64,000 nt of DNA from IMG/VR virus record IMGVR_UViG_3300043399_000561, one strand, 5' to 3'. Shown piece by piece: positions 9,787 through 27,957 of this stretch. Each line of letters begins with the position of its first letter. The stretch's first letter is position 1. The notes beneath the pieces are model-generated. The model was not told where the DNA came from and made no database searches. It saw nothing but the letters and a program-made list of their open reading frames with translations. Position numbers and translations under genes: made by a program. This DNA comes from a virus. Lineage: Duplodnaviria > Heunggongvirae > Uroviricota > Caudoviricetes.

Positions 9787-9795
9787 GAAAAAACT

Positions 9796-10597: not shown

Positions 10598-10674
10598 TGG
10601 CTCCGACACCAGGACTCGAACCTGGAAAAACGCTGATTAACAGTCAGCTGGGTCTACCATTCCCCCATGTCGGA
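10598..10674 (-). tRNA. tRNA-Asn(GTT), copy 1
   Basis: Anticodon loop CTGTTAA, T-loop TTCGAGT, discriminator G, CCA. Confidence 0.8.
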
Positions 10675-10700
10675 ATGAACTCTATAAACTATTTAACTTG

Positions 10701-10729
10701 ACTATAGCAGCCTGACAAATAAATGTCAA
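10701..10729 (-). promoter_or_regulatory. sigma70-type promoter TTGACA-N17-TATAGT upstream of tRNA-Asn
   Basis: Exact N17 spacing. Confidence 0.55.
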
Positions 10730-11292: not shown

Positions 11293-11396
11293 AATAAACT
11301 CCTGTTATTCTTTCTATATTTACTAATCTACAAAGTGACTTCCCTATTGTCTGTTCACTGTACATTTGTTTGACCGAATTGTCAACCAAAATCTTT

Positions 11397-11482
11397 TGGT
11401 GCACGGAAGAGGATTCGAACCTCTACACCATTTCTGATAGTACCCCCTCAAGATACCGCGTCTGCCGTTTCGCCACCCGTGC
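11397..11482 (-). tRNA. tRNA-Leu(GAG), type II
   Basis: Leu-type 3-bp D-stem, anticodon loop TTGAGGG, variable arm, T-loop TTCGAAT, CCA. Confidence 0.75.
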
Positions 11483-12128
11483 GTGAATCCCACTCTTGTA
11501 TGTCTTTCATAAGCTCATCAATAGTACAGCTATTTTTCCAAGTCTTTTTGGCGTTAGCTGAATGTAAGACGAACTCGCAATTAGCAGGATGTGATATAAT
11601 CTTAGGATCAATATTGTTAGTAAATCCGTAATGCACTGATATACGATGATCACGGACTACCCCAGTAGGATTAATCTTTTTATGATACATACCGTGTTCT
11701 TGTAGAAGACAGTACCCTTTAACTTTTTCTATACAGGATGATAAGTGGAATGAGCAATCTTCCTTATACATCACCTTGCAAAGTGCTTGCTCATCAGTTA
11801 TCTTTCTTTTACCTGTCATGTTCGTGGCCCAAGAACGGATGCTTTCATGAGTATCTTTAGTGAGACCTTTTGCCCAAGCCATCCTCTGTTTAGAATCTTC
11901 GGACAATGTTGCATAGCGTTCCTTAGCACTTACTCGTTTACCGCTCTCATAAGCGTTCTTTGTGTTAGCACTATTTCTTGCTCTAACAGCAGGGCATTTG
12001 TTAGGAACAATCTCGCACGAAAGTTTGCCACTTGAGGTAGAGTAGTGTGCAATATTGCCACACCCATAACTACATAACTCATCAGTGGTGATCTTTATTC
12101 CTGATTTAATAGGCATTTGTTTCTCCAT
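11448..12128 (-). CDS. HNH-family homing endonuclease
   Basis: DHRISVHYGFTNNIDPKIISHPANCEFVLHSANAKK. The C-terminal ~12 codons and the TGA stop lie inside tRNA-Leu(GAG). Confidence 0.6.
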   Translation of the reverse strand: MEKQMPIKSGIKITTDELCSYGCGNIAHYSTSSGKLSCEIVPNKCPAVRARNSANTKNAYESGKRVSAKERYATLSEDSKQRMAWAKGLTKDTHESIRSWATNMTGKRKITDEQALCKVMYKEDCSFHLSSCIEKVKGYCLLQEHGMYHKKINPTGVVRDHRISVHYGFTNNIDPKIISHPANCEFVLHSANAKKTWKNSCTIDELMKDIQEWDSRTGGETADAVS

Positions 12129-12176
12129 TGGTATACACGCAAGTATTTATCTTTTGCATACCAATCGGTATTAATT

Positions 12177-12267
12177 TGGTACTCCTGCTCGGATTCGAAC
12201 CGAGACCGACCCCTAATCTGGGCTCCGGGATATAAATCCGGCCACTCTACCATTAAGCTACAGGAGT
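12177..12267 (-). tRNA. Unusual 91-nt type II tRNA, anticodon apparently TAT
   Basis: Perfect 7-bp acceptor, T-arm CTCGG TTCGAAT CCGAG, CCA and a long variable arm. The anticodon arm is CCGGA TTTATAT CCCGG, which is either a 4-bp stem with a 9-nt loop or a stem with an A:C closing pair. Confidence 0.5.
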
Positions 12268-12279
12268 ATGAAACTTGCT

Positions 12280-12352
12280 TGGTGCCTCGTGAGGGATTTG
12301 AACCCCCGGCCTTTGCTTTACGAAAGCACTGCACTACCACTGTGCTAACGAG
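12280..12352 (-). tRNA. tRNA-Thr(CGT)
   Basis: Anticodon loop TTCGTAA on a 4-bp stem, T-loop TTCAAAT, CCA. Confidence 0.65.
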
Positions 12353-12354
12353 GC

Positions 12355-12693
12355 TCAGAATGAGTTGTTATTTTTATGCCACTGACCATAAACACAATGT
12401 AAAAACTCGTGCCCTACATATTCCGGTTCATATCTAACTGATGGGTCAATCATATGAATTGTGCAAGTGTCAAACGGATATTTCAACACAGTAAATGCAG
12501 CAGTTTTGCCAGGGAGCTTTTTTTCAGCTACAACCTTACTAAACTCTTGTTCTGTTTTATAAGTTACGATGTTAACTTTCACCGTTTGTCGTTCATACTG
12601 TTTTTTACCAAACGTATATCCGTCCTTACCTGGAGTAGGACCTTGATTACAACTTACCAATAATAGCAATAATGTTGCACATAATTTTTTCAT
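12355..12693 (-). CDS. Small lipoprotein with HExxH zinc-metallopeptidase-like motif
   Basis: Signal peptide plus lipobox LLVSCN. Motif HEFLHCVYGQWH gives HExxH plus a third His 7 residues downstream. 112 aa. Confidence 0.45.
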   Translation of the reverse strand: MKKLCATLLLLLVSCNQGPTPGKDGYTFGKKQYERQTVKVNIVTYKTEQEFSKVVAEKKLPGKTAAFTVLKYPFDTCTIHMIDPSVRYEPEYVGHEFLHCVYGQWHKNNNSF

Positions 12694-12901
12694 AGAGAAT
12701 CTCCCTATGATATTTAGTAAATTATAGTGGGCCCGTCACCACAACATAGACGGCATTATGCGGAATTTATCAGCGCCTCCGCTTGTGGATAGCTTGCTAT
12801 CCTTTGGGTAAGTTATTGCAGATTACTTTCAGGTTAGCCTTCGCACCGTCTCCAATGTATGCCTACACGGGATTTCATCTTACTAACACCCACTATAAAC
12901 T

Positions 12902-12985
12902 TGGTGCCCCGAGAGGGACTTGAACCCCCACGCCTTTCAGCAAAAGATTTTGAGTCTTCCGTGGCTACCATTACACCATCGGGGC
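12902..12985 (-). tRNA. tRNA-Leu(CAA), type II
   Basis: Anticodon loop CTCAAAA, variable arm, T-loop TTCAAGT, CCA. Confidence 0.8.
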
Positions 12986-13104
12986 AAGAAACTAGGCCCG
13001 GGATATTTATACTGCATACGGGCGGCGCAGTATCGGTTCAGCCTAGCGCATAGCTTATTGTGCCTTGAGAACACTCCGGTGCACCGCGTTTCTCTTCCGA
13101 TATT

Positions 13105-13188
13105 TGGTGCGGGTAGAGGGACTTGAACCCCCACGCGATTAAGCAACAGATTCTAAGTCTGCCGTGGCTACCATTACACCATACCCGC
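13105..13188 (-). tRNA. tRNA-Leu(TAG), type II
   Basis: Anticodon loop CTTAGAA; close paralogue of the Leu(CAA) gene; CCA. Confidence 0.8.
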
Positions 13189-13339
13189 ATTTAAAATTAT
13201 TTACTCGCCGTGACTCGTATCTCAAATAAAGTCACCGATAGTTCTTTCAACTACTGCTACGGCCTTCGGGTACACTCTCGCTCGGATTGAGCATAGAGCA
13301 AGGTCACATACGGCATACCGTACACACACGAGTAAAATT

Positions 13340-13415
13340 TGGTGCCGCCTCGAGGTTTCGATCCCCGTTCTTCGGTGCTTCAAACCGACGCTATCACCAG
13401 ATCAGCTAAAGCGGC
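13340..13415 (-). tRNA. tRNA-Phe(GAA)
   Basis: Anticodon loop TTGAAGC, T-loop ATCGAAA (unusual), CCA. Confidence 0.7.
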
Positions 13416-13967
13416 ATTTAAGTCATTATATTGTTCTTTCTCTATAATGAGAATCTTCTTGTCAGGATGCTGTTCTATTACTGCATCCATCTTAGCTCTA
13501 TCATTGCCCCACCATCTGCCCTTTATCTCAACATAAAGATCAAAAGCAGGAAGATAGAAATCAGGAGTGTAGTTCTTTGTTATTCCATCTAGAACATACT
13601 TCCAAGACTTGCATCTTTCCCAAGCAATGTTATTATCGTTACAGTATAAAGCAAAAGTCCTTTCCCAGGTACCTTGCACTTTCTTACCGCTCACTTCAAA
13701 CCATTTACTCTTGCCACCTGGATTATGCTGTGACATTCGTTCGGACAATCGTTTACGAGCATCCTCGCCCATTACAGTAGGACCGTATTCAGCAATGCGA
13801 AGTTTTGTAGCTTCAGATTTAGTCCTAGTAATTAGGTCGCCGCGATTTTTGGCATTGACCAATGAGTTAAAAGCGAGTCCGTGCTTCTGTTGCAGGCCTC
13901 TAAAGCTCAACCCAGCGTCATAATCTTTCTGTATTTCAGCCCAATCGTAATGTTTCTTGTGTGGCAT
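13380..13967 (-). CDS. PD-(D/E)xK-type homing endonuclease with N-terminal HTH-like region
   Basis: DFYLPAFDLYVEIKG gives D...E-x-K. The last 11 codons (AALADLVIASV) are the 5' 33 nt of tRNA-Phe read in frame, and the TGA stop sits in its anticodon loop. Confidence 0.55.
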   Translation of the reverse strand: MPHKKHYDWAEIQKDYDAGLSFRGLQQKHGLAFNSLVNAKNRGDLITRTKSEATKLRIAEYGPTVMGEDARKRLSERMSQHNPGGKSKWFEVSGKKVQGTWERTFALYCNDNNIAWERCKSWKYVLDGITKNYTPDFYLPAFDLYVEIKGRWWGNDRAKMDAVIEQHPDKKILIIEKEQYNDLNAALADLVIASV

Positions 13968-13992
13968 TTGTGTTCTCCGTGATACTATTTAT

Positions 13993-14036
13993 CCCAGATA
14001 CACAATCAACTGCTCTACCAACTGAGCTACAGAGGC
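13993..14036 (-). pseudogene. 5' tRNA fragment (acceptor plus D-arm only) directly upstream of the endonuclease start codon
   Basis: GCCTCTGTAGCTCAGTTGGTAGAGCAG followed by no anticodon arm or T-arm; the endonuclease ATG follows at 13967. Confidence 0.5.
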
Positions 14037-14195
14037 AAAAACTATTGACTGGCTGCGTCACACCTACGCGATTTAACAGGATAGACTGTCCTGACCAATC
14101 TTTAGTTTAGTAAAATAACAATGTCAAAGAATAGAAAGCATCGCTCTCTATAGTCTTGTTATAGCAAACAATGATAGTGTTGTCAACTATTATTT

Positions 14196-14273
14196 TGGTC
14201 ACGCCGACGAGATTCGAACTCGCATTCTCCGACTTGAAAGGACGAACTCTTATGCCAATTAGAGGACGGCGTG
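14196..14273 (-). tRNA. tRNA with anticodon TTC (Glu-like), imperfect anticodon stem
   Basis: Good acceptor, D-arm and T-arm (TTCGAAT) with CCA; anticodon stem TCGTC/GTCGG has a T:T mismatch; loop CTTTCAA. Confidence 0.5.
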
Positions 14274-14279
14274 ATATCT

Positions 14280-14363
14280 TGGTGGGCCGGTGTGGACTTG
14301 AACCACGCCCCGAAGGATGAGTTTTACAGACTCACTGCTAAATCCAATTAGCTTTACCGTCCC
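14280..14363 (-). tRNA. tRNA-Tyr(GTA), type II, copy 2
   Basis: Anticodon loop CTGTAAA, variable arm, T-loop TTCAAGT, CCA; one A:G mismatch in the acceptor stem. Confidence 0.7.
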
Positions 14364-14370
14364 ATTAACT

Positions 14371-14555
14371 TGGTGAGGGCGACCAGATTCGAACTGGCAG
14401 AAGTCGTTACCAAAGCATTACCAGTGGCTGCCATCAGGTTCAAAGACTGCCGCGAGTCTACAAAAAATACCCCTAGGCACTTGCGAACAAACTCGGGTGT
14501 TACCCCAATCGTTCCTTACTTTAACGATGCGTATACCTATTTCCGCTACGCCCTC
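14371..14555 (-). ncRNA. 185-nt tRNA-like gene: Leu-type tRNA with ~100-nt insertion in the anticodon loop (small intron or disrupted tRNA)
   Basis: Perfect acceptor GAGGGCG/CGCCCTC with A and CCA, T-arm GCCAG TTCGAAT CTGGT, Leu-like D-arm GCGGAAATAGGTATACGC. The anticodon-stem 5' strand TCGTT pairs with AACGA about 100 nt downstream; the 3' exon loop then reads CTTTGGT, a possible TTG anticodon. Confidence 0.45.
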
Positions 14556-14565
14556 ATATAATCTT

Positions 14566-14641
14566 GGTGGAGCCTACGGGGATCAAACCCGTGACCTTTT
14601 GTCTGCCAGACAAATGCTCTCTCATCTGAGCTAAAGCCCCA
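14566..14641 (-). tRNA. tRNA-Ala(GGC)
   Basis: Anticodon loop CTGGCAG; G3:U70 present; T-loop TTTGATC; CCA. Confidence 0.75.
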
Positions 14642-14648
14642 ATATCGG

Positions 14649-14731
14649 AGGAGTGTGATGGCATCGAACCATGTACCTTTCGGTACCTACTGATTTCGAA
14701 TCAGTGCGGGGAGCCAACCCCAGCACACTCC
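14649..14731 (-). tRNA. tRNA-Ser(CGA), type II, no encoded CCA
   Basis: Anticodon loop TTCGAAA; variable hairpin GGTACCGAAAGGTAC; T-arm ATGG TTCGATG CCAT. Confidence 0.65.
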
Positions 14732-14805
14732 AATCTCGCGGGGGAGTTGCACTGTCCCCCTTCCCTCAATCTGCTATTGTGCAACGCAGTAATGAGGAGT
14801 ATTTC

Positions 14806-14881
14806 TGGTCGGGAAGACAGGGATCGAACCTGCGACCTCGGCGTCCCGAACGCCGCGCTCTACCACCTGAGCTACTTCCCG
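14806..14881 (-). tRNA. tRNA-Pro(CGG)
   Basis: Anticodon loop TTCGGGA, T-loop TTCGATC, CCA. Confidence 0.8.
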
Positions 14882-15018
14882 TTGTTATTCTTTAATCTAT
14901 CAAAAGCACGTTTCATCCGCGCTCTTGCTTCTTCTGCTTCTTTTCCTTTGAGGACTCTTACGCCCTCAAAAACACGGTTGCTCGTGTAGTTGCTAAAGTC
15001 AGGTAAATCAGACTTCAT
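14872..15018 (-). CDS. Possible small basic protein (48 aa)
   Basis: MKSDLPDFSNYTSNRVFEGVRVLKGKEAEEARARMKRAFDRLKNNNGK, taken from the internal ATG of the listed ORF. The upstream part of that ORF is tRNA sequence, and the stop overlaps tRNA-Pro by 10 nt. Confidence 0.2.
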   Translation of the reverse strand: MKSDLPDFSNYTSNRVFEGVRVLKGKEAEEARARMKRAFDRLKNNNGK

Positions 15019-15034
15019 AATGATTTCCTTTAAA

Positions 15035-15113
15035 TGGTCGGGATAGCAGGACTCGAACCTGCGACCTCTTGTCCCCCAGACAAGCGCGCTAAACCAGGCT
15101 GCGCCATACCCCG
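15035..15113 (-). tRNA. tRNA-Pro(GGG)
   Basis: Anticodon loop CTGGGGG, T-loop TTCGAGT, CCA. Confidence 0.75.
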
Positions 15114-15192
15114 TTGAATTGGCCGCCCCCTTTATTTTCCGTCCCCTTGCACTGAATAAACAGTAAAGCACAAGGTGAGAGGGCGATAAGAT

Positions 15193-15288
15193 TGGTGGAC
15201 TGTGAAGGATTCGAACCTTCGAGTGGCCGTCGCCAATGAGTACCATACTTAATGGGAATCGAACCCAATCCTCTTCCAGGAACAGTCC
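15193..15288 (-). pseudogene. Chimeric or pseudo tRNA (96 nt): intact acceptor, T-arm and CCA, but a non-foldable core containing a second internal T-arm-like segment
   Basis: GGACTGT...ACAGTCC A CCA with T-arm GAAGG TTCGAAT CCTTC. Interior holds TGGG TTCGATT CCCA and a hairpin TGGC GACG GCCA. No D-arm or anticodon arm can be drawn. Confidence 0.4.
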
Positions 15289-15294
15289 AATTAG

Positions 15295-15384
15295 TGGCGG
15301 AGTCGGTGAGATTCGAACTCACGGTACCCTTACGAGTACAACACCTTTCCAGGGTGTCACAATCGGCCACTCTGTCACGACTCC
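15295..15384 (-). tRNA. tRNA-Ser(GGA), type II
   Basis: Anticodon loop CTGGAAA; near-identical D-arm and variable arm to tRNA-Ser(TGA); CCA. Confidence 0.85.
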
Positions 15385-15522
15385 AGTATTTGGCGCGACC
15401 ACTTATTTTCTATGCCGACTACTACTTTCGGAAGGTAGCTCTTGCATGTGGCCGCATAAGAATGGAAAAGCGGTGACGTTTTTTCGTCACTATTATAGTG
15501 GTATCACTCGCCGCCATAAACT

Positions 15523-15597
15523 TGGTGCGCGATGCAGGAGTTGAACCTGCCGCCTCTTCCATGTCAAGGAAGCGTTCTACCGATGAACTAATCGCGC
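15523..15597 (-). tRNA. tRNA-Val(GAC)
   Basis: Anticodon loop TTGACAT, T-loop TTCAACT, CCA. Confidence 0.8.
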
Positions 15598-15604
15598 ATT
15601 GAAT

Positions 15605-15679
15605 TGGCTGACTAAGTAGGACTCGAACCTACATATCCTTCATTAACAGTGAAGTTCATTACCATTATGATATTAGCCA
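15605..15679 (-). tRNA. tRNA-Asn(GTT), copy 2
   Basis: Anticodon loop CTGTTAA, T-loop TTCGAGT, CCA. Confidence 0.8.
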
Positions 15680-15737
15680 ATGAAACTGTGTGCGTTTTTA
15701 AAAAGGGACGCACGGCCCGAGCAGCCGAAGCTGTAAC

Positions 15738-15815
15738 TGGGGTGGGTGAAGGGATTCGAACCCTCGACATTCGGCACCACAAGCCGACGCTCTAACCAAC
15801 TGAGCTACACTCACC
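15738..15815 (-). tRNA. tRNA-His(GTG) with encoded G-1
   Basis: Anticodon loop TTGTGGT; extra 5' G pairs with discriminator C73; CCA. Confidence 0.8.
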
Positions 15816-15821
15816 ATGAAT

Positions 15822-15897
15822 TGGAGGACCCGCCCGGGCTCGAACCGGGGACCTAGAGATTAAAAGTCTCCCACTCTACCTACTGAGTTACGGGTCC
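15822..15897 (-). tRNA. tRNA-Lys(TTT), copy 2
   Basis: Anticodon loop CTTTTAA, T-loop TTCGAGC, CCA. Confidence 0.85.
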
Positions 15898-15947
15898 GTA
15901 AAACTCTCAGCTTCGGCTGTAGACCGAACTTAATCGGTCTTAAAAAC

Positions 15948-16024
15948 TGGTGCAACCAGAAGGATTCGAACCTTCAACCTTCGGTTTCGTAGACCGATGC
16001 TCTATCCAGTTGAGCCATGGCTGC
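15948..16024 (-). tRNA. tRNA-Arg(ACG)
   Basis: Anticodon loop CTACGAA, T-loop TTCGAAT, CCA. Confidence 0.85.
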
Positions 16025-16035
16025 GTGAAATTGTT

Positions 16036-16692
16036 TTATAATGATTGTAGTCTATCTATAATAGAATTACGTTCTTCAATTGTGTTTTCTTTTAGGTCTA
16101 GAGGATAGAAAAACGCCATCGGAAGTTCAAATGCCGGCACTGACTCTAGTCCACCCTTAATTGTTTGGTTGTGATAAGTTTTAGCATTTAAACTAAAAAC
16201 ACTCTTGTTTTCAGCTTCATATTGCTCTATCAAGACAGGTGTACTTGAAGGGAAACTTTCATTGGGATCAGATACCTCACCCGGAACTTCATAAAAATTA
16301 ATTAAACTGTTGTTTGCGCCATCAAGCAAAAAAGTTAATGTGTAGTCAGAAGTGGTTGGGTGCAGATGTTTGTGTATATTTAAAGTAACGTTATTCAACC
16401 CAAATAACATAGGCAAAAAGTTATATTTCTTACATAATTCAGAAATATTGGTCCTGTTAATTACTTCACTATAAAGTAATTGATCTATATCTCTCACTTC
16501 ATCCGCAAGAGCATTGAAACTCATATAAGTTTGTGTACCAGTAACCGTCTGATATAATCCAGATGCCCAGCAATACGAATTCTGTACTGAAGGATCTAAC
16601 TCATAGACCAGAGAGAAGGCTTCTAGAGTGGAAGTGACAATTTCATTGTACACTGAATCTGACAGAATTACGGGAACATAATTTTTTGACAC
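16036..16692 (-). CDS. Hypothetical protein (218 aa)
   Basis: ORF track; no motif I can assign confidently. Confidence 0.45.
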   Translation of the reverse strand: MSKNYVPVILSDSVYNEIVTSTLEAFSLVYELDPSVQNSYCWASGLYQTVTGTQTYMSFNALADEVRDIDQLLYSEVINRTNISELCKKYNFLPMLFGLNNVTLNIHKHLHPTTSDYTLTFLLDGANNSLINFYEVPGEVSDPNESFPSSTPVLIEQYEAENKSVFSLNAKTYHNQTIKGGLESVPAFELPMAFFYPLDLKENTIEERNSIIDRLQSL

Positions 16693-16745
16693 CAGGAAAC
16701 TTTTCCTTTTTTGTTATTTAGTCCCGAAATTATTCGTAATTAATA

Positions 16746-16822
16746 TGGTAGACCCTGAGAGATTCGAACTCCCGACCTTCTGTTTCGAAGACAGACATTC
16801 TATCCAGCTGAACTAAGGGTCC
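16746..16822 (-). tRNA. tRNA-Arg(TCG)
   Basis: Anticodon loop CTTCGAA, T-loop TTCGAAT, CCA. Confidence 0.8.
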
Positions 16823-16833
16823 AAAATATTATA

Positions 16834-16907
16834 TGGTGCTCCCAGGAGGTACCGCCCCTCCGGCTCATCATTACCAATGATGTGTATTGCTTTTATACTA
16901 TGGGAGC
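16834..16907 (-). tRNA. tRNA-Thr(GGT) with non-canonical T-loop
   Basis: Anticodon loop TTGGTAA; T-arm GGAGG GGCGGTA CCTCC lacks the TTC; CCA. Confidence 0.6.
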
Positions 16908-16938
16908 CGACATCATATTTAGTATGCTAATTCCGGTG

Positions 16939-17535
16939 TTAATTTAAAGGAAGTCCTCTTGATGCTCTGCCATTGCCCTTATTACGACCTTTCCAAGTCG
17001 GCGTAATACTATGACAATTAGGACAAACTAATCTAAGGTTGGCGAATTCGTTATTTCCCGCGTTGCCGTCAATATGATCTAATTCCAACGACAATTTTGC
17101 GCCGCGCCATTCCGATATGCCACATTCAAAGCAGTTGCTTCCGTACTCACGAATCAACGCAGTTTTGATAGTCGTTCGTTCGGTTAGGTTTCCTTCATAT
17201 AATCGTTTTTTAGTGTCCTCTCTAGTAGGAATATGCTGGCAATCTGCACTACAATATTTTTTTACTAGGTGCTTAGAAGAGGTGTGTTTTTTTCCGCAGC
17301 CTGCACATTCCCATTCTACTTTGGTAGCTCTATTTTTATTAGAATGGGTAGCGGCGCAAGTGTGGTTACAGAATTTTTTGTGCCTATCAACATATGATAG
17401 TGTTTTGTTGCATTCCGCACAAGAACTAGGAGAACTGTCATAAAGTTCTACTCGTTGCAGTTTTTTCTTTTCTAAGGTAGCTCTGGCTTTTTTCATACCA
17501 AGCGCGCCTGCTTCTGCTTTTGTTAGTTTTCGCAT
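16939..17535 (-). CDS. HNH endonuclease with multiple CxxC zinc knuckles
   Basis: ELDHIDGNAGNNEFANLRLVCPNCHSITP. Confidence 0.65.
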   Translation of the reverse strand: MRKLTKAEAGALGMKKARATLEKKKLQRVELYDSSPSSCAECNKTLSYVDRHKKFCNHTCAATHSNKNRATKVEWECAGCGKKHTSSKHLVKKYCSADCQHIPTREDTKKRLYEGNLTERTTIKTALIREYGSNCFECGISEWRGAKLSLELDHIDGNAGNNEFANLRLVCPNCHSITPTWKGRNKGNGRASRGLPLN

Positions 17536-17600
17536 ATAATACTCTCCACAATGTATTTATGCTCTAGGTTCAAAACCAGCTAAAAGCAGCATTATAAAGT

Positions 17601-17674
17601 TGGATGCCCCTCTAGGACTCGAACCTAGGTTGACGGATTCAAAGTCCGCTCTCTTACCACTAGAGGAAGGGGCA
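17601..17674 (-). tRNA. tRNA-Gln(TTG)
   Basis: Anticodon loop CTTTGAA, T-loop TTCGAGT, CCA. Confidence 0.8.
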
Positions 17675-17692
17675 ATGTCAACTTGTAGACAC

Positions 17693-17721
17693 ATTATATA
17701 TGCGATTGCATAAAATGTCAA
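17693..17721 (-). promoter_or_regulatory. sigma70 consensus promoter TTGACA-N17-TATAAT upstream of tRNA-Gln(TTG)
   Basis: Perfect -35 and -10 hexamers with 17-nt spacer; -10 lies ~20 nt from the tRNA 5' end. Confidence 0.6.
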
Positions 17722-17727
17722 ATAAAA

Positions 17728-17803
17728 TGGATGCCCGAGATGGGGTCGAACCACCAACCTCCTGGTTCAGAGCCAGGCGATCTGCCAATTGATCTATCGG
17801 GCA
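17728..17803 (-). tRNA. tRNA-Gln(CTG)
   Basis: Anticodon loop CTCTGAA, T-loop TTCGACC, CCA. Confidence 0.8.
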
Positions 17804-21045: not shown

Positions 21046-22113
21046 TTAAAATGCAAGTGCGCTGTAATCGTACAGTACCTTTTCCTTGACACGAGTAAGA
21101 ATGAGCCTTGCACCCTTGCTTTCAAAGATAAACATTCCCTTCTGTGAATCCAAATTGATAAGATTTTCGGGAGTGAACTTAAACTCCTTCCATTCAGCCT
21201 CATCATTGTTAGGGTCAGTATCATATTCGATATTAACACCAGACACAGCAAGCGGGTTGCCTCGCCATTCACAGTATTCCAAACGCTCACTAGGAATTTC
21301 AGCACCACAATCAATGAGAGTGATATCGTACCTAGCACCACTGTCATATTCAGGCTTTGCGTTAAGCATTTCAAGTGCCTCACTCGGGCTTTCGTTATAT
21401 CGGTTCATTTCTTCAATAAGAGCCTTAAGCATATCAAAGTTGAACTCACCAAACAAACTCGTAAGACCACAAATTTGGTCAATATACTGCTTGTTATTAA
21501 GACGATCCTCACAATATTCACGAATGAAGGTTACATCAAGTCCCTTAAAATCAAGCAGGTAGAACAGTCGACCGGGGCGATTACGCATATGCTCATTGAC
21601 ACGCCACTTGTCATTCACGGTGAGGATGTAAAGCTTCTTACTACCGAATACACCATCAAGCAGTGTGAGGATTTCCTCCTGCTTGTCGCGGTCGTATACC
21701 TTCTCAAACTCATCAAAAAGAATGACGCACGGCTGATCAATATCCTGCAATAGCTTGAAGAAGCCATCACCAGTCCAATCACGATTGATCACGATAGTAG
21801 GGACGCCTTGCTTTGCAAGTTCGATAGAGATATTCTTAGCAAGCAGCGTCTTGCCACTACCCTTTTCACCGTTCAACAGAACACCCGTCTGCTGGGGACG
21901 GTCCCAAAACGAATTGATAATCCGATCAGTGTGACGGAGAGTATTACCGTACAACTTTGACGGAATTTCAAAGTTTTCAATCTGATCAAGATAGAAATTA
22001 CCAAAAGGATCTACCGCAACGGTATAGTTGCCTGCAGGAAGTTGCTCGTGTAGATTCATTGCTTCCTTGCTGGAAACACGAAAAGTAGTACCACTCTTAA
22101 GAAAGTATGCCAT
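21046..22113 (-). CDS. AAA+ ATPase
   Basis: Walker A LLNGEKGSGKTL; Walker B CVILFDEFEK; sensor-1 LTVND; Arg finger RPGRLFY. Confidence 0.7.
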   Translation of the reverse strand: MAYFLKSGTTFRVSSKEAMNLHEQLPAGNYTVAVDPFGNFYLDQIENFEIPSKLYGNTLRHTDRIINSFWDRPQQTGVLLNGEKGSGKTLLAKNISIELAKQGVPTIVINRDWTGDGFFKLLQDIDQPCVILFDEFEKVYDRDKQEEILTLLDGVFGSKKLYILTVNDKWRVNEHMRNRPGRLFYLLDFKGLDVTFIREYCEDRLNNKQYIDQICGLTSLFGEFNFDMLKALIEEMNRYNESPSEALEMLNAKPEYDSGARYDITLIDCGAEIPSERLEYCEWRGNPLAVSGVNIEYDTDPNNDEAEWKEFKFTPENLINLDSQKGMFIFESKGARLILTRVKEKVLYDYSALAF

Positions 22114-22120: not shown

Positions 22121-22444
22121 TCAAAACTTTAGTAGGTTAAACGCAAGCAGGATATCCCGCTTGTCTTCGTCAACTGGATGAACTGCCAGTGCAGTATACT
22201 CACCTTCATTTAGATCAGGTTCATAAAACTTTTCATACTTGAATCCAAACTTAGTGAGAATCTTTTCAACAGCCTCGAGGGCTTCTAGGTTGCGAACGCC
22301 AACACAAGTAAAGTATGTGTTGTCAGGATCTTCGGTGGAGCCGAGCTTGAACCCCAGCTTCATAGCAACGTGTGCGGTCTGCACAAGCTGGTACTCCTTG
22401 AAAATATCTTGTCTGGTGAAAAAATATGCGTATCGTTTTGTCAT
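22121..22444 (-). CDS. PTH2-family peptidyl-tRNA hydrolase
   Basis: QLVQTAHVAM matches AAQCSHAA; TALAVHPVDED matches TVLGIGPGPAD; 107 aa is the right size for a PTH2 fold. Confidence 0.5.
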   Translation of the reverse strand: MTKRYAYFFTRQDIFKEYQLVQTAHVAMKLGFKLGSTEDPDNTYFTCVGVRNLEALEAVEKILTKFGFKYEKFYEPDLNEGEYTALAVHPVDEDKRDILLAFNLLKF

Positions 22445-22491
22445 AGTTTCTTATAACAGGAGTTGACCCTAAAGTCAACCCCTTATTATCC

Positions 22492-23865
22492 TCACTTGTT
22501 AGCGTTTGCCCGAACTTCGTCAAAAGTCATATCACGAACAAGAACACCATTTTCAAAAACTGCTTCAAGCATATCCGTAGCAAAAATGTATTCACGGTCA
22601 TCGCTACGAACAGTATGGTACGTTCCATCAACAAACTTGATCAGCTTGAGCTTACCCTTCTTGCTCTGCTTGCCCTTGTCAGTGATCGGGTCCTTGAAAA
22701 CATCAACCCACTTACCATCAACAAGTGCCGCGCTGCACTTCATAGCGAAGCGGAAATCATCTCTATTCACAGTCTGAAGTAACATTCCGCCCTGACCGAA
22801 AGCCACATTGTCAGCACTGTAACCAGCAAGCGTGATCGTGTAGAGAATGCTACGAATAGTCTGGTGATTGATGCCGTCACCCTGCAAGACACGGACATTG
22901 TTCAATACCTTGTAGCCCTTGTCATTAACAGTGTGACCAAAGTTCTTGTCAAGAATCTTGAGGCACTTGCAGACAACATCAGCTGGATCTCCCGAGTCAG
23001 GACGAACAACAAGAGTAGCACCACTATCAAGAACATCCTGCTTAAGTTCGGTACCCCACATTTCGCAAGCAGCGAAAATGTCATAGCTGTCCGAAACACA
23101 AGCAAAGATACCACCTGGCTTTGCGTTCTGTTTGATCATATTGCGATAGCTGTCAACCTCGTGTTCACGCCCCCAGCTGGTTACAGTGCTGTGTTCCATT
23201 GCAGGAACGCTAAACCCAGCCATGTCAGCATTGTAATAACGACGGGCAAAAAGCAGAGCCTCAACGGTGTCGGTCCCTTGAAAATTAACCAAGTGCGCGG
23301 CACCACCAATTCCTGCACTTTCCAAACTGCTAACCCCACGAGCACCGAAATCGTGAAGTTTAAAATCAATAGTAGTAGGATCACCAGTTTTCTCCAGATA
23401 TTCAAGAATCAATTTCTTGTTTTCATAGCTGTTAGTAGCAACAGTAGTAGGATACCAAATTGCACGAAGCAGCGCCGTTTCGAGGAACGAAGTCAGCCAG
23501 TAACAGTTAGGATCAGTGTTTTCAATCGTAACGAGAACATTACCAGTAGGAATGACAAGACCCTCAGGTGCTGCTTTAATGCGAACAGGAAGATATCCGT
23601 TATGTTCTAGAAGAATGTAAATCCAGCCTTCTCGATTAAAAGGTTCGCCGTGTGCTGTAATGATAGCTTCCGCTTCTTGGATCATTTCAAGCGTAATCGG
23701 GGTAAGCAAATATTCCTTAATAAAGGCCTGAAGTCCGAAGAAAACAGTAGCATCGTGTTTGCCACCGCGGCTTTCAATGTAGCTGTAGATACCAGTTGTG
23801 TTGGGAGGGTATTGATTGAACTGCGAATACTTATAGCTATCCGCGTTAAGAATAATGTTGTGCAT
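22492..23865 (-). CDS. nadV: Nicotinamide phosphoribosyltransferase (NAMPT / NadV)
   Basis: Extensive colinear identity to NAMPT: DSYKYSQFNQYPPNT, VPEGLVIPTGNVLVTIENTDPNCYWLT, LHDFGARGVSS, HLVNFQGTDTV, SVPAMEHSTVTSWG, VVRPDSGDP. Confidence 0.9.
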   Translation of the reverse strand: MHNIILNADSYKYSQFNQYPPNTTGIYSYIESRGGKHDATVFFGLQAFIKEYLLTPITLEMIQEAEAIITAHGEPFNREGWIYILLEHNGYLPVRIKAAPEGLVIPTGNVLVTIENTDPNCYWLTSFLETALLRAIWYPTTVATNSYENKKLILEYLEKTGDPTTIDFKLHDFGARGVSSLESAGIGGAAHLVNFQGTDTVEALLFARRYYNADMAGFSVPAMEHSTVTSWGREHEVDSYRNMIKQNAKPGGIFACVSDSYDIFAACEMWGTELKQDVLDSGATLVVRPDSGDPADVVCKCLKILDKNFGHTVNDKGYKVLNNVRVLQGDGINHQTIRSILYTITLAGYSADNVAFGQGGMLLQTVNRDDFRFAMKCSAALVDGKWVDVFKDPITDKGKQSKKGKLKLIKFVDGTYHTVRSDDREYIFATDMLEAVFENGVLVRDMTFDEVRANANK

Positions 23866-23920
23866 AATAGAACTCCTCTATTTAAAATGCTAGCTTCTAT
23901 CAGCTAGACTTGATGATTGA

Positions 23921-23948
23921 CTATAACAAATCTCTAGCAGAATGTCAA
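23921..23948 (-). promoter_or_regulatory. sigma70-type promoter TTGACA-N17-TATAGT upstream of nadV
   Basis: Exact N17 spacing; about 45 nt upstream of the NAMPT ATG. Confidence 0.5.
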
Positions 23949-24541
23949 CCGAATTCTACAAGGGTGACGGACCCGCCCTTACTAGAAACCTTTTCAGCAA
24001 AGTCTTCAATCATCGCAATGATGCGATCCTTATCACCCCCTGCAAGTCCCATACCGATGTAGGGGAAGCCGAAATTAAACATTTCCCCACCAAGTTGTCG
24101 GGCAGGCTTAGTTGCAGTTTGCCATGCCTTGGTATTTCCCTTGCCTGACCTCCAGCGAGTTTCAGCAAGTTCATTAGCAACCTTAGCACTGTCTTCGGAA
24201 TGTGCTACCTTTTCATACAGTGTGTCAAGAATGCGCTGGAATGCTTCATATTCAAAATGATCCTTGTCACGAGGTGCAAAGTCATATTGAGTATACGCAT
24301 TCACTATGAGAAAAGGATTATCCGCTTTTTTTACTACTTCAAGAGAGAAGGTACCTAGTTTGTCCCTATCACTCTTTACCGTAGCAAGGTCAGCTTCATA
24401 TGCCTCCGGATATCGTTCACGAATCTCCTTAGCGATTCCAGAACCCATCGTGTGGTGACAATTACAACCATGAACTATCACAGTGAATTCTCCCTGTTCA
24501 GCGAGGTCAATGAGATTTCCCTTAGTGTGCTTAAGCATCAT
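23945..24541 (-). CDS. Macro-domain protein (ADP-ribose / ADPR-1''-phosphate binding or processing)
   Basis: GNLIDLAEQGEFTVIVHGCNCHHTMGSGIAKEI matches the GDIT..AIVNAAN..L.GGGV macro core; C-terminal FPYIGMGLAGGD glycine motif. Confidence 0.65.
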   Translation of the reverse strand: MMLKHTKGNLIDLAEQGEFTVIVHGCNCHHTMGSGIAKEIRERYPEAYEADLATVKSDRDKLGTFSLEVVKKADNPFLIVNAYTQYDFAPRDKDHFEYEAFQRILDTLYEKVAHSEDSAKVANELAETRWRSGKGNTKAWQTATKPARQLGGEMFNFGFPYIGMGLAGGDKDRIIAMIEDFAEKVSSKGGSVTLVEFG

Positions 24542-24741
24542 CGTCTCCGATCCGTGAAAACATTTTTACCGCATTGCGGGCACTTGATGCCGCGATCAAC
24601 CGAATAATCACCTAAATAATCGTAGCTGTGCTTGATGGACTGCACTTCACTCTGGGTATATTCTAGAACCGAAGCACAAGACCAACAAGTAACACGATGG
24701 ACGGCTGATTCGTCTCTTCCTACAACCTTAACCATAATCAA
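24538..24741 (-). CDS. Small zinc-ribbon protein (CxxC...CPQC)
   Basis: 67 aa; CWSC and CPQCG pairs; start and stop overlap both neighbours (coupled). Confidence 0.45.
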   Translation of the reverse strand: MIMVKVVGRDESAVHRVTCWSCASVLEYTQSEVQSIKHSYDYLGDYSVDRGIKCPQCGKNVFTDRRR

Positions 24742-25787
24742 AGCCCCAGAAAATATTGAATGATATGAAAGTGATCATCAAACAGGTCTTCCTCACGAAG
24801 ATCACCAATCGGTACCCACTTTGCCTTTTCAGCATCGTCAGCACCCTTCACCTTTGGCAATGTAACATCGTCTGCCAACTTGAAGTGGTATGCCTTCGTG
24901 ATAACACGACCAAGCGTAGAACGATAAGGATCGTCAAAGGTTTGATGGTCACGAATGCTACCACGCAATACAGCTTCCGGAACCTTGATCTTGGTTTCTT
25001 CACGAAGTTCACGAATAGCACCATCAAGCTGACGCTCAAATTCGTTTAGGTGACCGCCAGGCAATGCCCACAGTCCCTTACCAGGTTCTGCTTTACGCTT
25101 GACAAGCAGGATGTGACCACTCTGTTCAACTACTGCATCAACAGTGGCGTGCTTCACAGGATAGGGCGAAACTTCCCACTGCTTCTTGTAGTTACGAACG
25201 AACTTAAGTTCACTCTGCAATTGCTTAAAAGCATCGGTGTTATAAAAGTTTATAATGAACTGTAGAACGCTTTCAGGAATAGCATCATTATGAATAAACT
25301 CTCCCGACAACCACTTCTCCCGAATATAGGTAGCGTGAACATCAGCCTGAATCTCAACATTCACCGAGCGAAACTGTGGGAACATCTTTAGATAATAGCT
25401 GGTGTTATCCTTGCTAGCACCGATCAATCCAACCTTAGCATCGTTGAATCCATTTGCGCGGAAGCCGAAGTTGTTGACAACATCAAGCACAGTGTCCTTA
25501 ACGATATGCTGAACCTGATTGATCCAGGCAGCTTCGTTATATGTCTTGTCATAGAGTGGCTTGATGATCAGCCTAGATGCATCTCCGCCGCGCATAGCAC
25601 CAAAAATCATATCTGCTCGTTCTTGGAACGTGAATGGGTTACGGATCGTGCGGGCCTTACCTGCCGAACCTACGAGAACCAATACATTTTTAGATTTTTG
25701 TAGCGCAATATCGATAATACGCTTATGCTCGTTGTGTAGTGGCTGAAACCTACCTACAAAGACCAATAGGTCAAACTCTTTTTCCAT
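24738..25787 (-). CDS. natV: Bifunctional NMN adenylyltransferase / Nudix hydrolase (NadM-Nudix, NatV-like)
   Basis: N-terminal GRFQPLHNEH (HxGH nucleotidyltransferase motif); C-terminal Nudix box GGHLNEFERQLDGAIRELREETKI. Confidence 0.85.
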   Translation of the reverse strand: MEKEFDLLVFVGRFQPLHNEHKRIIDIALQKSKNVLVLVGSAGKARTIRNPFTFQERADMIFGAMRGGDASRLIIKPLYDKTYNEAAWINQVQHIVKDTVLDVVNNFGFRANGFNDAKVGLIGASKDNTSYYLKMFPQFRSVNVEIQADVHATYIREKWLSGEFIHNDAIPESVLQFIINFYNTDAFKQLQSELKFVRNYKKQWEVSPYPVKHATVDAVVEQSGHILLVKRKAEPGKGLWALPGGHLNEFERQLDGAIRELREETKIKVPEAVLRGSIRDHQTFDDPYRSTLGRVITKAYHFKLADDVTLPKVKGADDAEKAKWVPIGDLREEDLFDDHFHIIQYFLGL

Positions 25788-25883
25788 TGCTCAAAACTCC
25801 TTTGAAGCTATTTTAATGTAGCGAGTCTATCTCGCTACAGTCTTATTTATACTTGGAAAGTAGGATAAAGTCAATAACTTTCT

Positions 25884-26105
25884 TTACCCATTTTTATTAC
25901 GAATCACCGTAGTTACATTATGAATGTCGGTGTTCTGCCTACGAATCTGCCTACTGTTCAATGCCAATAAGTTAGCCATCTTGTTTACCTGCTCACTCAA
26001 ATGACGAACACGATCCTCTAGAAACTTGATTCTTTTTTCTGGATCGTTGGGTTGAACGGTAACTTCTTTGTGTTCAGTTATTTGATTTGTATACATCTTC
26101 TTCAT
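25884..26105 (-). CDS. Hypothetical small protein (73 aa)
   Basis: ORF track. Confidence 0.35.
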   Translation of the reverse strand: MKKMYTNQITEHKEVTVQPNDPEKRIKFLEDRVRHLSEQVNKMANLLALNSRQIRRQNTDIHNVTTVIRNKNG

Positions 26106-26114
26106 AGTGATTCC

Positions 26115-26297
26115 TTACACGGTATTTATGTCATACTTCAAAACAAGATAACTTACTAGAGGATGATCAGCAGGTTCAAACTCAATGATATAGCTCGTAT
26201 GTCTTTTGGTATAGGGCAAATGCTTTACACCAGATTCCTTAATCGCCTTGTCAACTTCTCTGAAATGCTGCCAGGGAACTAAAATCTTAGTTGTCAT
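26115..26297 (-). CDS. Hypothetical small protein (60 aa; trimmed to internal ATG MTTKILVP)
   Basis: Trimmed so it overlaps the upstream gene only at the stop-start junction. Confidence 0.3.
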   Translation of the reverse strand: MTTKILVPWQHFREVDKAIKESGVKHLPYTKRHTSYIIEFEPADHPLVSYLVLKYDINTV

Positions 26298-27882: not shown

Positions 27883-27957
27883 TGGCGCGCTCGGTGGGAT
27901 TCGAACCCACTGTCTCGGGCTTTAGAGACCCTTGCAATACCATTTAGCCTCGGGCGC
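27883..27957 (-). tRNA. Isolated atypical tRNA-like gene (8-nt anticodon loop, 1-nt variable region)
   Basis: Acceptor with one C:A mismatch, T-arm GTGGG TTCGAAT CCCAC and CCA. The only stem available for the anticodon is GTCTC/GAGAC around loop TAAAGCCC. Sits just upstream of the peroxiredoxin gene. Confidence 0.4.

Follow-up and report, generated by a model that had tools for sequence, protein, structure and literature searches.

The phage DNA analysed here, a stretch of 64,000 nt that we call the window, carries what on balance appears to be a NARP2-type NAD+ reconstitution module, together with a pair of accessory genes and an RNA control element that both pathway genes share. The four genes proposed for this cassette by a first-pass annotation are real and lie where it had placed them, all on the minus strand, with the macro-domain and zinc-ribbon genes bracketed by natV and nadV as claimed (Table 1). 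Stop and start codons overlap at the natV/zinc-ribbon and zinc-ribbon/macro junctions (TGA/ATG, ATGA), and these three genes are translationally coupled. A search of 50,697 phage records turned up no close relative of this phage; the best cultured-phage match to its NatV is 47% identical.

Table 1. Features of the NAD+ reconstitution region, in window coordinates.
Feature	Position	Strand	Description
natV promoter candidate	25846..25874	−	sigma-70-like TTGACT-N17-TATAAA, read from the sequence
natV leader	25787..25843	−	covariance model (CM) R1, 52.6 bits, E 8.6e-8
P1 hairpin of natV leader	25817..25839	−	TGTAGCGA-GATAGAC-TCGCTACA
natV	24738..25787	−	349 aa; bifunctional NMN adenylyltransferase (NMNAT) and Nudix
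zinc ribbon	24538..24735	−	65 aa; ORF 24538..24741, likely ATG at 24735
macro	23945..24541	−	198 aa; Adpp/Poa1p-like macro domain, predicted ADPR-1''P phosphatase
nadV promoter candidate	23920..23948	−	sigma-70-like TTGACA-N17-TATAGT, TG before −10; 11/12 matches
nadV leader	23863..23913	−	CM R1, 34.4 bits, E 2e-4
P1 hairpin of nadV leader	23890..23907	−	CTAGCT-GATAGA-AGCTAG
nadV	22492..23865	−	457 aa; nicotinamide phosphoribosyltransferase (NAMPT)

The identification of NadV and NatV as a NARP2 pair proved correct: both enzymes exceeded curated equivalog thresholds (NatV, 427 bits against NCBIfam NF003786, cut-off 397; NadV, 656 bits against NF006629, cut-off 405), and domain searches recovered the predicted NAPRTase, CTP_transf_like and NUDIX domains. 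NatV combines Pfam CTP_transf_like (PF01467) with NUDIX (PF00293), and its translation contains the HxxH motif (GRFQPLHNEH) and an intact Nudix box (G-x5-E-x7-REL-x-EE). NadV comprises NAPRTase (PF04095) and NAMPT_N (PF18127), matches phrog_448 at E 1.7e-162 and is similar at the DNA level to the nadV of the KVP40 group; its gene is 65–66% identical in DNA to nadV of Synechococcus phages B3/B23 and Ralstonia phage RsoM2USA. No second NAPRTase-family gene was found in the 64-kb window. As in KVP40, NadV would join nicotinamide and PRPP to give NMN, the N-terminal domain of NatV would adenylylate NMN to NAD+, and its C-terminal domain, a Nudix of ADP-ribose pyrophosphatase type, would split ADPR into AMP and ribose-5-phosphate (R5P). 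The Nudix domain of KVP40 NatV reportedly acts on ADPR, in work by Lee and co-workers from 2017.

NARP2 and its anti-defence activity were defined for the KVP40 pair NadV/Nampt and NatV/Nmnat-Nudix (bioRxiv 10.1101/2024.02.11.579819); the literature documents phage rescue from NAD+-depleting defence, and the synthesis of NAD+ out of nicotinamide, PRPP and ATP, for the KVP40 genes only, and the authors of NARP2 found no phage that carries NARP1 as well. Both enzymes are present in the window as neighbours, in the natV-to-nadV order of many phages, with the zinc-ribbon and macro genes as extra genes between them. In KVP40-like phages, by contrast, natV and nadV lie tens of kilobases apart, and neither a macro gene nor the leader motif described below was found within 8 kb of their natV.

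The macro gene probably encodes an ADPR-1''P phosphatase of the Adpp family, judging from its sequence relationships. The predicted Macro domain fell just short in Pfam (20.9 bits; gathering score, 22), and was borne out by stronger matches to phrog_335 (E 2.7e-44), to Poa1p in a profile search and at the level of structure, where an AlphaFold2 model (pLDDT 82, pTM 0.80) returned macro-fold matches; an insertion of ~36 aa at about residues 113–152 was modelled with low confidence. By both sequence and fold, the closest solved relative is Poa1p, the ADPR-1''P phosphatase of yeast (phmmer E 2e-4; profile E 8e-7, the best PDB match; Foldseek target-normalised TM score (TMt) 0.78 to 6LFR). A full-length BLASTP alignment gave 27% identity to Adpp of Vibrio phage Gary (E 6e-14), and a second NARP1-linked macro protein was 32% identical (E 4e-27). 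Gary Adpp is a validated, Poa1p-like ADPR-1''P phosphatase that extends NARP1, with H24A among its listed mutant constructs (bioRxiv 10.64898/2026.01.28.702374). The catalytic His24 of the window protein corresponds in alignments to His24 of Gary Adpp and to His23 of Poa1p, the residue replaced in the H23A mutant structure 6LFS, and is at least 90% conserved among 62 homologues. Homology to Adpp and the conserved His24 thus support the earlier suggestion that the macro protein acts on ADPR-phosphate by-products. Genes of the phrog_335 type are present in 2837 phage records and in most cases have no NARP gene in their vicinity, so that family membership as such leaves the substrate unfixed; identity to the Adpp proteins compared is only 27–32%.

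As an Adpp-type phosphatase, the protein would remove the 1''-phosphate of ADPR-1''P, the product of RES-type NAD+ phosphorolysis, and would thereby detoxify it. The resulting ADPR could then be cleaved by the adjacent Nudix domain to AMP and R5P, from which the host would again make PRPP. The natV-zinc ribbon-macro-nadV arrangement would then be the NARP2 counterpart of the published NARP1-AP (Adps-Adpp-Namat; bioRxiv 10.64898/2026.01.28.702374), likewise an NAD+ reconstitution operon with a macro protein of the same family and the same essential His. Whereas the preprint defines Adpp as encoded no more than two genes away from Adps and Namat, the window protein is flanked by natV and nadV, and it differs from the NARP1-linked Adpp proteins by its ~36-aa insertion. 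Moreover, NARP2, unlike the pathway in the NARP1-AP setting, does not use ADPR as a substrate: there, ADPR passes to Adps, while any ADPR produced here would pass to Nudix. Only NARP1 neighbourhoods were screened in that preprint, and our search found no published report of Adpp within NARP2. Since, in the published assay, NARP2 by itself is enough to overcome aRES defence, the macro protein is not required for the aRES phenotype and any benefit it brings must be subtler. No ORF in the window or in 88 loci matched, at E up to 1, an HMM built from six proteins of the aRES inhibitor aRad1 (aRad1a–f).

Two other substrates classes were weighed against ADPR-1''P. The macro protein may be linked to NARP2 and act on a different soluble ADP-ribose derivative, destroying a signal or toxin instead of feeding Nudix; candidates are sirtuin-type O-acetyl-ADPR, ADPR-2'-phosphate or a cyclic phosphate, and immune signals such as the gcADPR of Thoeris. 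Family members do bear the JGI name ‘O-acetyl-ADP-ribose deacetylase’, although this is an automatic COG label, and Iyer, Burroughs, Anantharaman & Aravind 2022 (Viruses 14:1977) hold that phage Macro, NADAR and Nudix proteins mainly target soluble ADPr derivatives and divide this labour. Further in line with this reading, a NADAR (DUF1768) gene fills the natV-nadV interval of Xanthomonas phage XacN1 in place of macro, suggesting that this interval generally accommodates an accessory gene for ADPr processing. Given that the nearest characterised relatives, Poa1p and Gary Adpp, are ADPR-1''P phosphatases whose essential His is kept in the window protein, we regard a different soluble substrate as unlikely.

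We consider it more improbable still that the protein reverses the ADP-ribosylation of macromolecules, whether of DNA (DarT-type) or of protein (ART toxins), as an independent counter-defence gene within an NAD cluster. The DarG and TARG1 macrodomains were among the top Foldseek matches (E 3e-7 to 1e-5), and the profile also matched the SCO6735-like structure 5E3B; yet TMt was lower for DarG/TARG1 (0.63–0.73) than for Poa1p (0.71–0.78). A partial NCBIfam match to the antitoxin DarG was weak and, at 26 bits, stayed far under the cut-off of 250. Inspection by eye placed an invariant Gln of the family (N81-A-Y-T-Q85) where DarG and TARG1 would carry their catalytic Lys (NFPTK-like motif), which would again argue against this activity.

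The first-pass annotation had named a lack of conservation of the two inserted genes next to natV and nadV in relatives as something that would count against its reading, and the two fared differently. Of 54 IMG/VR NatV clusters, 22 (5 of 24 clades) have a macro gene in the natV-nadV interval, and it is absent from the slot in the remaining 32; the order natV-(zinc ribbon)-macro-nadV recurs down to 38–40% NatV identity, so that for the macro gene this check did not refute the reading. The slot held no macro gene in any of the cultured NARP2 phages inspected: RcXuper, RpAliso, XacN1, Papperlapapp, Marzo, Cp1R7A-A1, KVP40-like phi-Grn1, phiN3, which has one 1.5 kb downstream instead, and CfP1 (judged from its annotation alone). 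The zinc ribbon, for its part, is a facultative accessory protein. It belongs to phrog_2834 (E 1.8e-12) and keeps two CxxC pairs (C17/C20 and C52/C55) invariant across 13 diverse members, all its Pfam zinc-ribbon matches being below threshold. Its gene was present in just 8 of the 54 NatV clusters, and the closest relatives, with 83% NatV identity, lack it; in phiM9, Phosso, a Variovorax phage and LR756511, family members are located at a distance from any NAD genes.

Such a distribution raises the question of whether the macro and zinc-ribbon genes have any functional link to NARP2, or are simply common early-region genes of large phages that were inherited or transferred as a cassette into this slot. 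Macro domains are found in 40–56% of medium and jumbo phages, according to Iyer et al. 2022. The natV-nadV interval is a hotspot that holds many unrelated small ORFs in relatives, a close relative (locus L015) has no macro gene, and the zinc-ribbon family also occurs away from NAD genes, as noted. Against mere coincidence, the slot is filled in five NatV clades that are only 38–48% identical to the window NatV, the macro gene typically stands immediately before nadV (gap, 73–101 nt), and by a rough estimate a random single gene in a ~300-gene genome would hit the slot in ~1–2% of cases. The zinc ribbon is rare (46 of the 50,697 records by tblastn) and nevertheless directly adjoins natV or nadV in five NatV clades, including those of cultured RcXuper and Cp1R7A-A1. 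An absence of any functional link thus strikes us as quite improbable. The part of Iyer et al. 2022 cited here places NADAR domains beside NadM and NadV in phages, and the natV-NADAR-nadV layout of XacN1 resembles the natV-macro-nadV slot of the window; within that part, the neighbourhood link is given for NADAR and not for Macro, and neither the zinc ribbon nor an RNA element is mentioned.

With respect to transcription, the cassette probably consists of two units, natV-zinc ribbon-macro and nadV. The claim of a single coupled operon with its own promoter proved wrong: although natV, zinc ribbon and macro are coupled in translation, the TTGACA-N17-TATAGT site falls at the macro-nadV junction and precedes nadV alone. 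The TGA within its TTGACA is the macro stop codon, an overlap kept in nine related loci (L005, L006, L010, L012, L013, L016, L024, L048 and L074). A separate site precedes natV, where the automatic scan had missed it because its last −10 base is an A; separate sites before natV and nadV make two transcription units more likely than one operon. Among relatives, 61 of 94 unique leaders had a promoter-like site (at least 9 of 12 positions), most ending 2–8 nt before the leader, while such sites were not enriched in the region overall (12 observed, 19.3 expected). Each unit would accordingly be read from a host-type promoter and begin with the same structured 5' leader.

This leader is a candidate for a new cis-regulatory RNA. 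In the natV copy, the P1 hairpin is followed by an A/U-rich linker, a second hairpin (P2) with AGGAG (Shine-Dalgarno) in its loop, and the AUG; the P2 of the nadV copy reads ATAGA-GGAGT-TCTAT, again followed by AUG, and homologous leaders in relatives show compensatory changes in their stems. Over 15 base pairs, 87–88% of positions were paired as opposed to 52% in shuffles, and the covariation score reached 0.86, compared with 0.19–0.20 for shuffles and at most 0.23 for slid controls. Helix P2 was 90–96% paired even though it had not been used in selecting the sequences. The model is also specific: within the window it recovered only the two sites (next best, 13.7 bits), and across 1.54 Mb of loci, a sample biased towards relatives of the window NatV, it returned 118 matches, all on the gene strand; about 109 of the 118 stand directly before natV or nadV, and 105 of the 118 have the GAUAGAC loop. 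A gene-blind pattern scan of IMG/VR gave a similar picture, 20 of 22 model matches preceding natV or nadV. Leaders were found in 20 of 28 NatV clades and in the cultured phages RcXuper and RpAliso. When both strands of 22300..26200 were run against Rfam with cmscan, neither copy gave a match at E up to 10, and our search returned no published description.

We infer that the leader acts after transcription to co-regulate both NARP2 genes, by way of a protein or small ligand, with P1 presenting its conserved GAUAGAC loop at about the transcript start and P2 presenting the Shine-Dalgarno sequence in a loop; such co-regulation would be in keeping with the waste and toxicity reported for NARP2 expression. 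The known NAD+ riboswitches (nadA motif, class I; pnuC motif, class II) are likewise structured 5' leaders of NAD genes that involve the Shine-Dalgarno sequence, but the window leader differs in its two simple hairpins with GAUAGAC and AGGAG loops and in lacking an Rfam match. Protein-binding phage hairpins such as lambda boxB and coat-protein operators, like the leader, have a conserved loop on a freely covarying stem.

A possible, if doubtful, alternative is that the leader is no sensor at all but a constitutive expression element, a stabilising 5' hairpin plus a Shine-Dalgarno hairpin, travelling with natV and nadV. At about 55 nt, it consists of two simple hairpins with neither internal loops nor an evident ligand pocket, and its start lies close to the 5' end predicted for the transcript, a position in which hairpins are known to shield mRNA. 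Yet a stabilising hairpin needs no invariant 7-nt loop over a freely changing stem, nor does this reading readily explain why the element is kept separately before both genes, even when these are kilobases apart. Returning to a regulatory leader, we can offer a specific mode of action only as an unlikely, tentative proposal: a new class of small riboswitch, or an operator through which NadV or NatV autoregulates, might sense the NAD+ state (NAD+, NMN, ADPR, ADPR-1''P or PRPP) and thereby confine production of the costly NARP2 enzymes and the co-transcribed macro phosphatase to cells whose NAD+ a defence system has depleted.

Few bacterial strategies against phages are commoner than NAD+ depletion, which phages are known to counter by three pathways, NARP1, NARP2 and NARP3. 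The recurrence of an Adpp-type phosphatase in NARP2 suggests that ADPR-1''P matters even when NAD+ is rebuilt from PRPP, be it as a toxin or as a sink of phosphate and ribose that is recycled through Nudix, and would extend the idea of an associated phosphatase from NARP1 to a second pathway. The zinc ribbon, repeatedly found beside NARP2 genes, is a candidate for an accessory or inhibitor function. Compact, strongly covarying and almost exclusive to natV and nadV, the leader may provide a handle on the control of a pathway described as both wasteful and toxic, and it is testable in the cultured phages RcXuper and RpAliso.

Four consecutive minus-strand ORFs fill positions 22492-25787 of the window: natV, a gene for a zinc-ribbon protein, a macro-domain gene and nadV. 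The natV stop codon overlaps the start region of the zinc-ribbon gene, whose own stop overlaps the macro start (ATGA). As the first-pass annotation had proposed, the outer genes encode an NMNAT-Nudix protein and a NAMPT: HMM searches recovered the cytidylyltransferase-like, NUDIX and NAPRTase domains, with NatV scoring 427 bits against a cut-off of 397 for NF003786 (the curated NCBIfam equivalog for bifunctional NMN adenylyltransferase/Nudix hydrolase) and NadV 656 bits against 405 for NF006629. No second NAPRTase-family gene was found within the 64-kb window, which is the visible part of this genome. The cassette core is the already known NARP2, the NadV-NatV pathway of NAD+ reconstitution published for phage KVP40. 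Every functional statement made here is inferred from homology and genomic context.

Features of the cassette, its surroundings and related loci (L-numbers, loci of related phages; all other positions refer to the window)
Feature	Position	Strand	Remarks
natV	24738..25787	-	349 aa; cytidylyltransferase-like and NUDIX domains
zinc ribbon	24538..24741	-	likeliest start ATG 24735, giving 65 aa
macro	23945..24541	-	198 aa
nadV	22492..23865	-	457 aa; NAMPT_N and NAPRTase domains
leader of natV	25787..25843	-	GAUAGAC-loop hairpin 25817..25839, then Shine-Dalgarno-in-loop hairpin
leader of nadV	23863..23913	-	GATAGA-loop hairpin 23890..23907, then Shine-Dalgarno-in-loop hairpin
promoter-like site of nadV	23948..23920	-	TTGACA-N17-TATAGT; 11/12 matches; directly upstream of nadV
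promoter-like site of natV	25874..25846	-	TTGACT-N17-TATAAA
third promoter-like site	22455..22490	-	TTGACT-N17-TATAAG
107-aa ORF	22121..22444	-	headed by the third site
AAA ATPase	21046..22113		follows the 107-aa ORF
tRNA array	3599..17803	-	34 genes
suppressor-type tRNA	27883..27957	-	anticodon CTA
giant ORF	44097..51062	-	2321 aa
interval cargo of relatives with NAD/ADP-ribose link	L050 11436-12053; L036 12085-12645; L093 (XacN1) 8815-9402		
~100-aa family	L086 (RpAliso) 9038-9337; L022 11067-11387; L016 11062-11376; L018 13841-14155		
split nadV	L018/L019/L026 (14209-14913 and 16006-16731)		~1.1-kb insertion
lengthened nadV	L081 11623-13962		example of L081-L083
CTA tRNA of phage Phosso	L091 9553-9628		
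218-aa ORF	L077 11309-11965		
extra leader motifs	L036 13427-13482, 14079-14134; L061 3572-3623; L022 9278-9331; L046 9261-9315; L057 6648-6703; L150 1574-1626		

The phage is uncultured, and none of 50,697 deposited phage genomes is a near relative: neither a megablast search with the cassette nor a tblastn search with a 604-aa window protein (ORF 60393..62207) returned a match in these records. Among cultured phages, Rhodobacter phage RcXuper has the best-matching NatV (47% identity); IMG/VR contigs, the nearest relatives of all, reach NatV identities of up to 83%. The window harbors 35 tRNA genes. Besides a dense array there is a separate suppressor-type tRNA next to a peroxiredoxin gene, called tRNA-Pyl by ARAGORN; a CTA tRNA is also present in Sinorhizobium phage Phosso near its zinc-ribbon homologue. 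The giant ORF is followed by ORFs of 922 and 1176 aa.

With respect to transcription, the first-pass annotation had assigned all four genes to one operon with its own TTGACA-N17-TATAGT promoter. This site is real but sits between macro and nadV. Since it overlaps the macro stop codon, and since natV has a separate site, the cassette is best read as two units, natV-zinc ribbon-macro and nadV, rather than as a single operon with a single promoter. The third promoter-like site lies inside a GTTGAC/GTCAAC hairpin just past nadV. The 107-aa ORF behind it is kept beside nadV in relatives, with 75-90% identity in the closest.

The proposed macro domain escaped the Pfam search (20.9 bits, just below the threshold of 22) but was borne out by a match to phrog_335 (E 2.7e-44) and by an AlphaFold2 model with a macro fold (pLDDT 82, pTM 0.80). 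Among solved structures, yeast Poa1p, a phosphatase of ADP-ribose-1''-phosphate (ADPR-1''P), was closest in sequence (phmmer E 2e-4; E 8e-7 with a 62-sequence profile) and gave the highest target-normalised TM-scores (0.71-0.78), followed by the DarG and TARG1 macrodomains (0.63-0.73). A helical insertion of ~36 aa, at about residues 113-152, is modelled with low confidence and is missing from most of the ~160-aa homologues.

In January 2026, a Poa1p-like macro gene, Adpp, was described in 15% of operons of NARP1, the Adps-Namat pathway; Adpp removes the phosphate from ADPR-1''P, which the RES-domain defence aRES produces, and thereby lets NARP1 rebuild NAD+, a combination termed NARP1-AP (bioRxiv 10.64898/2026.01.28.702374). 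The window protein shares 27% identity (E 6e-14) with the validated Adpp of Vibrio phage Gary and 32% (E 4e-27) with another NARP1-linked macro protein. It has the HxCNC...MGxGIA and IGxGLAGGD motifs in common with Adpp proteins, and its His24 aligns with His23 of Poa1p and with His24 of the Gary protein, for which an H24A construct appears in tables of the same preprint. Because of this homology, the common motifs and the aligned histidine, we assign the window protein, on sequence grounds, to the Adpp family, in a different genomic context: Adpp is defined by its NARP1 neighbourhood, and this Adpp/Poa1p-like protein falls outside that definition. The JGI gene call for macro, P0017, has 167 aa and covers 84% of the query at 100% identity. 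Its length points to Met32 as the probable start; as this would remove the catalytic His24, it looks like a start-codon miscall.

To assess conservation of the arrangement, we collected 80 IMG/VR loci encoding NatV relatives (38-83% identity), located natV, nadV, macro and zinc-ribbon genes with iterated HMMs, and counted 54 NatV clusters (95% identity) whose downstream sequence was long enough, clades being set at 60% identity. In this sample, biased towards relatives of the window NatV and towards IMG/VR, nadV lay within 9 kb of natV in 46 of the 54 clusters, and a macro gene stood between the two in 22, spread over five of 24 clades. Where the slot holds a macro gene, nadV typically comes next, 73-101 nt further downstream. 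Within the window's own clade nearly every cluster has it, the close relative L015 being the exception, and it recurs in clades of only 38-48% NatV identity (L048, L054, L073, L077-L084). No macro gene was found in the natV-nadV slot of cultured NARP2 phages with scanned loci, CfP1 being judged from annotation only; phiN3 has one 1.5 kb downstream of nadV.

Other relatives carry different cargo in the interval: a NADAR (DUF1768) gene in place of macro in XacN1, a PnuC-type NMN/NR transporter, or an AAA_28 (NadR-kinase-like) protein. The natV-nadV interval behaves as an accessory-gene slot, a cargo hotspot. A recurrent family of ~100 aa is also found there in several clades, including that of the cultured phage RpAliso; it ends in a C-terminal ...GW.V.YD.P.Y.ENY...F.F pattern and has no Pfam match. 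A Pfam scan of eight recurrent uncharacterised ORFs from related cassettes found no domains. In some relatives nadV itself is split, or extended to ~780 aa (~320 aa over the usual length), which points to an inserted intron, intein or homing endonuclease.

The first-pass annotation had proposed macro and zinc ribbon alike as parts of a four-gene module. Macro recurs in the slot as counted above; the zinc ribbon was adjacent in eight of the 54 clusters (three clades) and was missing from the window's closest relatives (L005, L006 and L011). Its product matches phrog_2834 (E 1.8e-12) and has two CxxC pairs, four invariant cysteines in all, in what is modelled as a generic beta ribbon. It is not aRad1: an HMM of six aRad1 proteins drew no hit at E ≤1 among the ORFs of the window and of 88 loci. 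In the cultured Rhodobacter phage RcXuper and Mesorhizobium phage Cp1R7A-A1 the gene lies between or after natV and nadV. A census from the zinc-ribbon side covered 46 phage records, with eight contexts inspected. Around the homologues of phiM9, Phosso, a Variovorax phage and a metagenomic megaphage, NAD genes are lacking for 5-8 kb; Karamvirus-like phages (Taquito locus) have a macro gene ~3 kb from the zinc ribbon, and record coordinates place natV ~6-7 kb from it in related phages. The tie of the zinc ribbon to the cassette is one of guilt by association only.

Comparison of the macro-nadV intergenic regions revealed, besides the kept promoter-like site, a hairpin whose loop always reads GATAGA(C) and whose stem varies among loci yet remains complementary, followed by a Shine-Dalgarno sequence within an inverted repeat. 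Exactly two such hairpins behind a promoter-like site exist in the window, upstream of natV and nadV, so that the hairpin does not mark this phage's intergenic regions in general. Minimum-free-energy folds of 58 unique leaders returned the same two-hairpin architecture in nearly all: P1, with a G-C closing pair and an AUAGA pentaloop; an A/U-rich linker of 6-12 nt; and P2, with (A)GGAG(U) in its loop and the AUG a few nucleotides on. In the leader alignment (A5), 87.4% of cells were paired as compared to 52.3% in shuffles, and the covariation score was 0.86, while shuffles gave 0.20 and slid registers no more than 0.23, with both sides changing in 14 of 15 pairs. The inner five pairs of P1 served in sequence selection and are therefore biased; the outer P1 pairs and P2 were not so used, and P2 was paired to 90.5% on A5 and to 95.7% on 94 unique matches recovered by the covariance model. 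A sigma-70-like site (≥9/12 matches) precedes 61 of these 94 leaders, mostly ending 2-8 nt ahead, and therefore P1 would sit roughly where the transcript begins. A pseudoknot between the P1 loop and the P2 3' arm fits the window's nadV leader (ATAGA/TCTAT), but the pairing is not kept in others such as L074.

The covariance model (R1), run unfiltered on the window, returned the two leaders only (52.6 and 34.4 bits), the next best site reaching 13.7 bits (E 1.7). On the loci it gave 118 matches at E ≤0.1, all on the gene strand, of which ~109 abut natV or nadV and the remainder mostly precede small uncharacterised genes that belong to these cassettes or adjoin them. A simple hairpin search of 1.54 Mb of loci had 67 of its 98 instances directly upstream of natV or nadV. 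As R1 was quickly calibrated, its E-values are rough, and the argument is borne by the bit scores and by a gene-blind IMG/VR scan for GATAGAC-N18-34-AAGGAGTTT: among the 80 loci returned, 22 sites passed R1, and 20 of these lie directly before natV or nadV. Of 28 NatV clades, 20 have the leader, among them those of the cultured RcXuper and RpAliso; the remaining cultured phages in the sample (KVP40-like phi-Grn1, phiN3, XacN1, Cp1R7A-A1, Papperlapapp, CfP1 and Marzo) lack it. No Rfam family matched either leader, and literature searches for a phage riboswitch or RNA motif of nadV/NAMPT returned nothing relevant and no description of this RNA.

As to what the macro protein contributes, ADPR is not consumed by NARP2, which by itself cancels aRES in the published assay. 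Phages that carry NARP1 together with NARP2 were not found by the NARP authors (bioRxiv 10.1101/2024.02.11.579819). ADPR-1''P is described as toxic by Iyer et al. 2022 (Viruses 14:1977), who also record NADAR beside NadM and NadV and treat Macro/NADAR/Nudix co-occurrence generally. For an Adpp-like enzyme translated together with NatV, the most parsimonious role would be to convert ADPR-1''P to ADPR, which could then serve as substrate for the ADP-ribose pyrophosphatase-type Nudix domain encoded on the same transcript. We infer, rather than observe, that the two steps would remove a toxic metabolite and recycle AMP and ribose-5-phosphate back towards PRPP. The macro protein might possibly act instead on other soluble ADP-ribose derivatives, or reverse macromolecular ADP-ribosylation. 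'NARP2 with an associated phosphatase' was not found in the searchable literature.

For the leader, an unvarying loop on a freely covarying stem is the hallmark of an RNA hairpin that is recognised specifically. The recogniser could be NadV or NatV, some other protein of phage or host, or a metabolite. A few further genes close to NARP2 cassettes also have the motif in front of them, among them those for a ~120-aa family (L036, L061), a 314-aa protein and a 215-aa protein resembling by eye the 218-aa ORF of L077; the genes behind these motifs may be part of the same regulon. The KVP40 NARP2 operon is reported to be toxic in E. coli and to make a wasteful excess of NAD+ (bioRxiv 10.1101/2024.02.11.579819; 10.64898/2026.01.28.702374), which provides a rationale for control of the pathway. 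The leader is the one component of the cassette that may be new in its own right.
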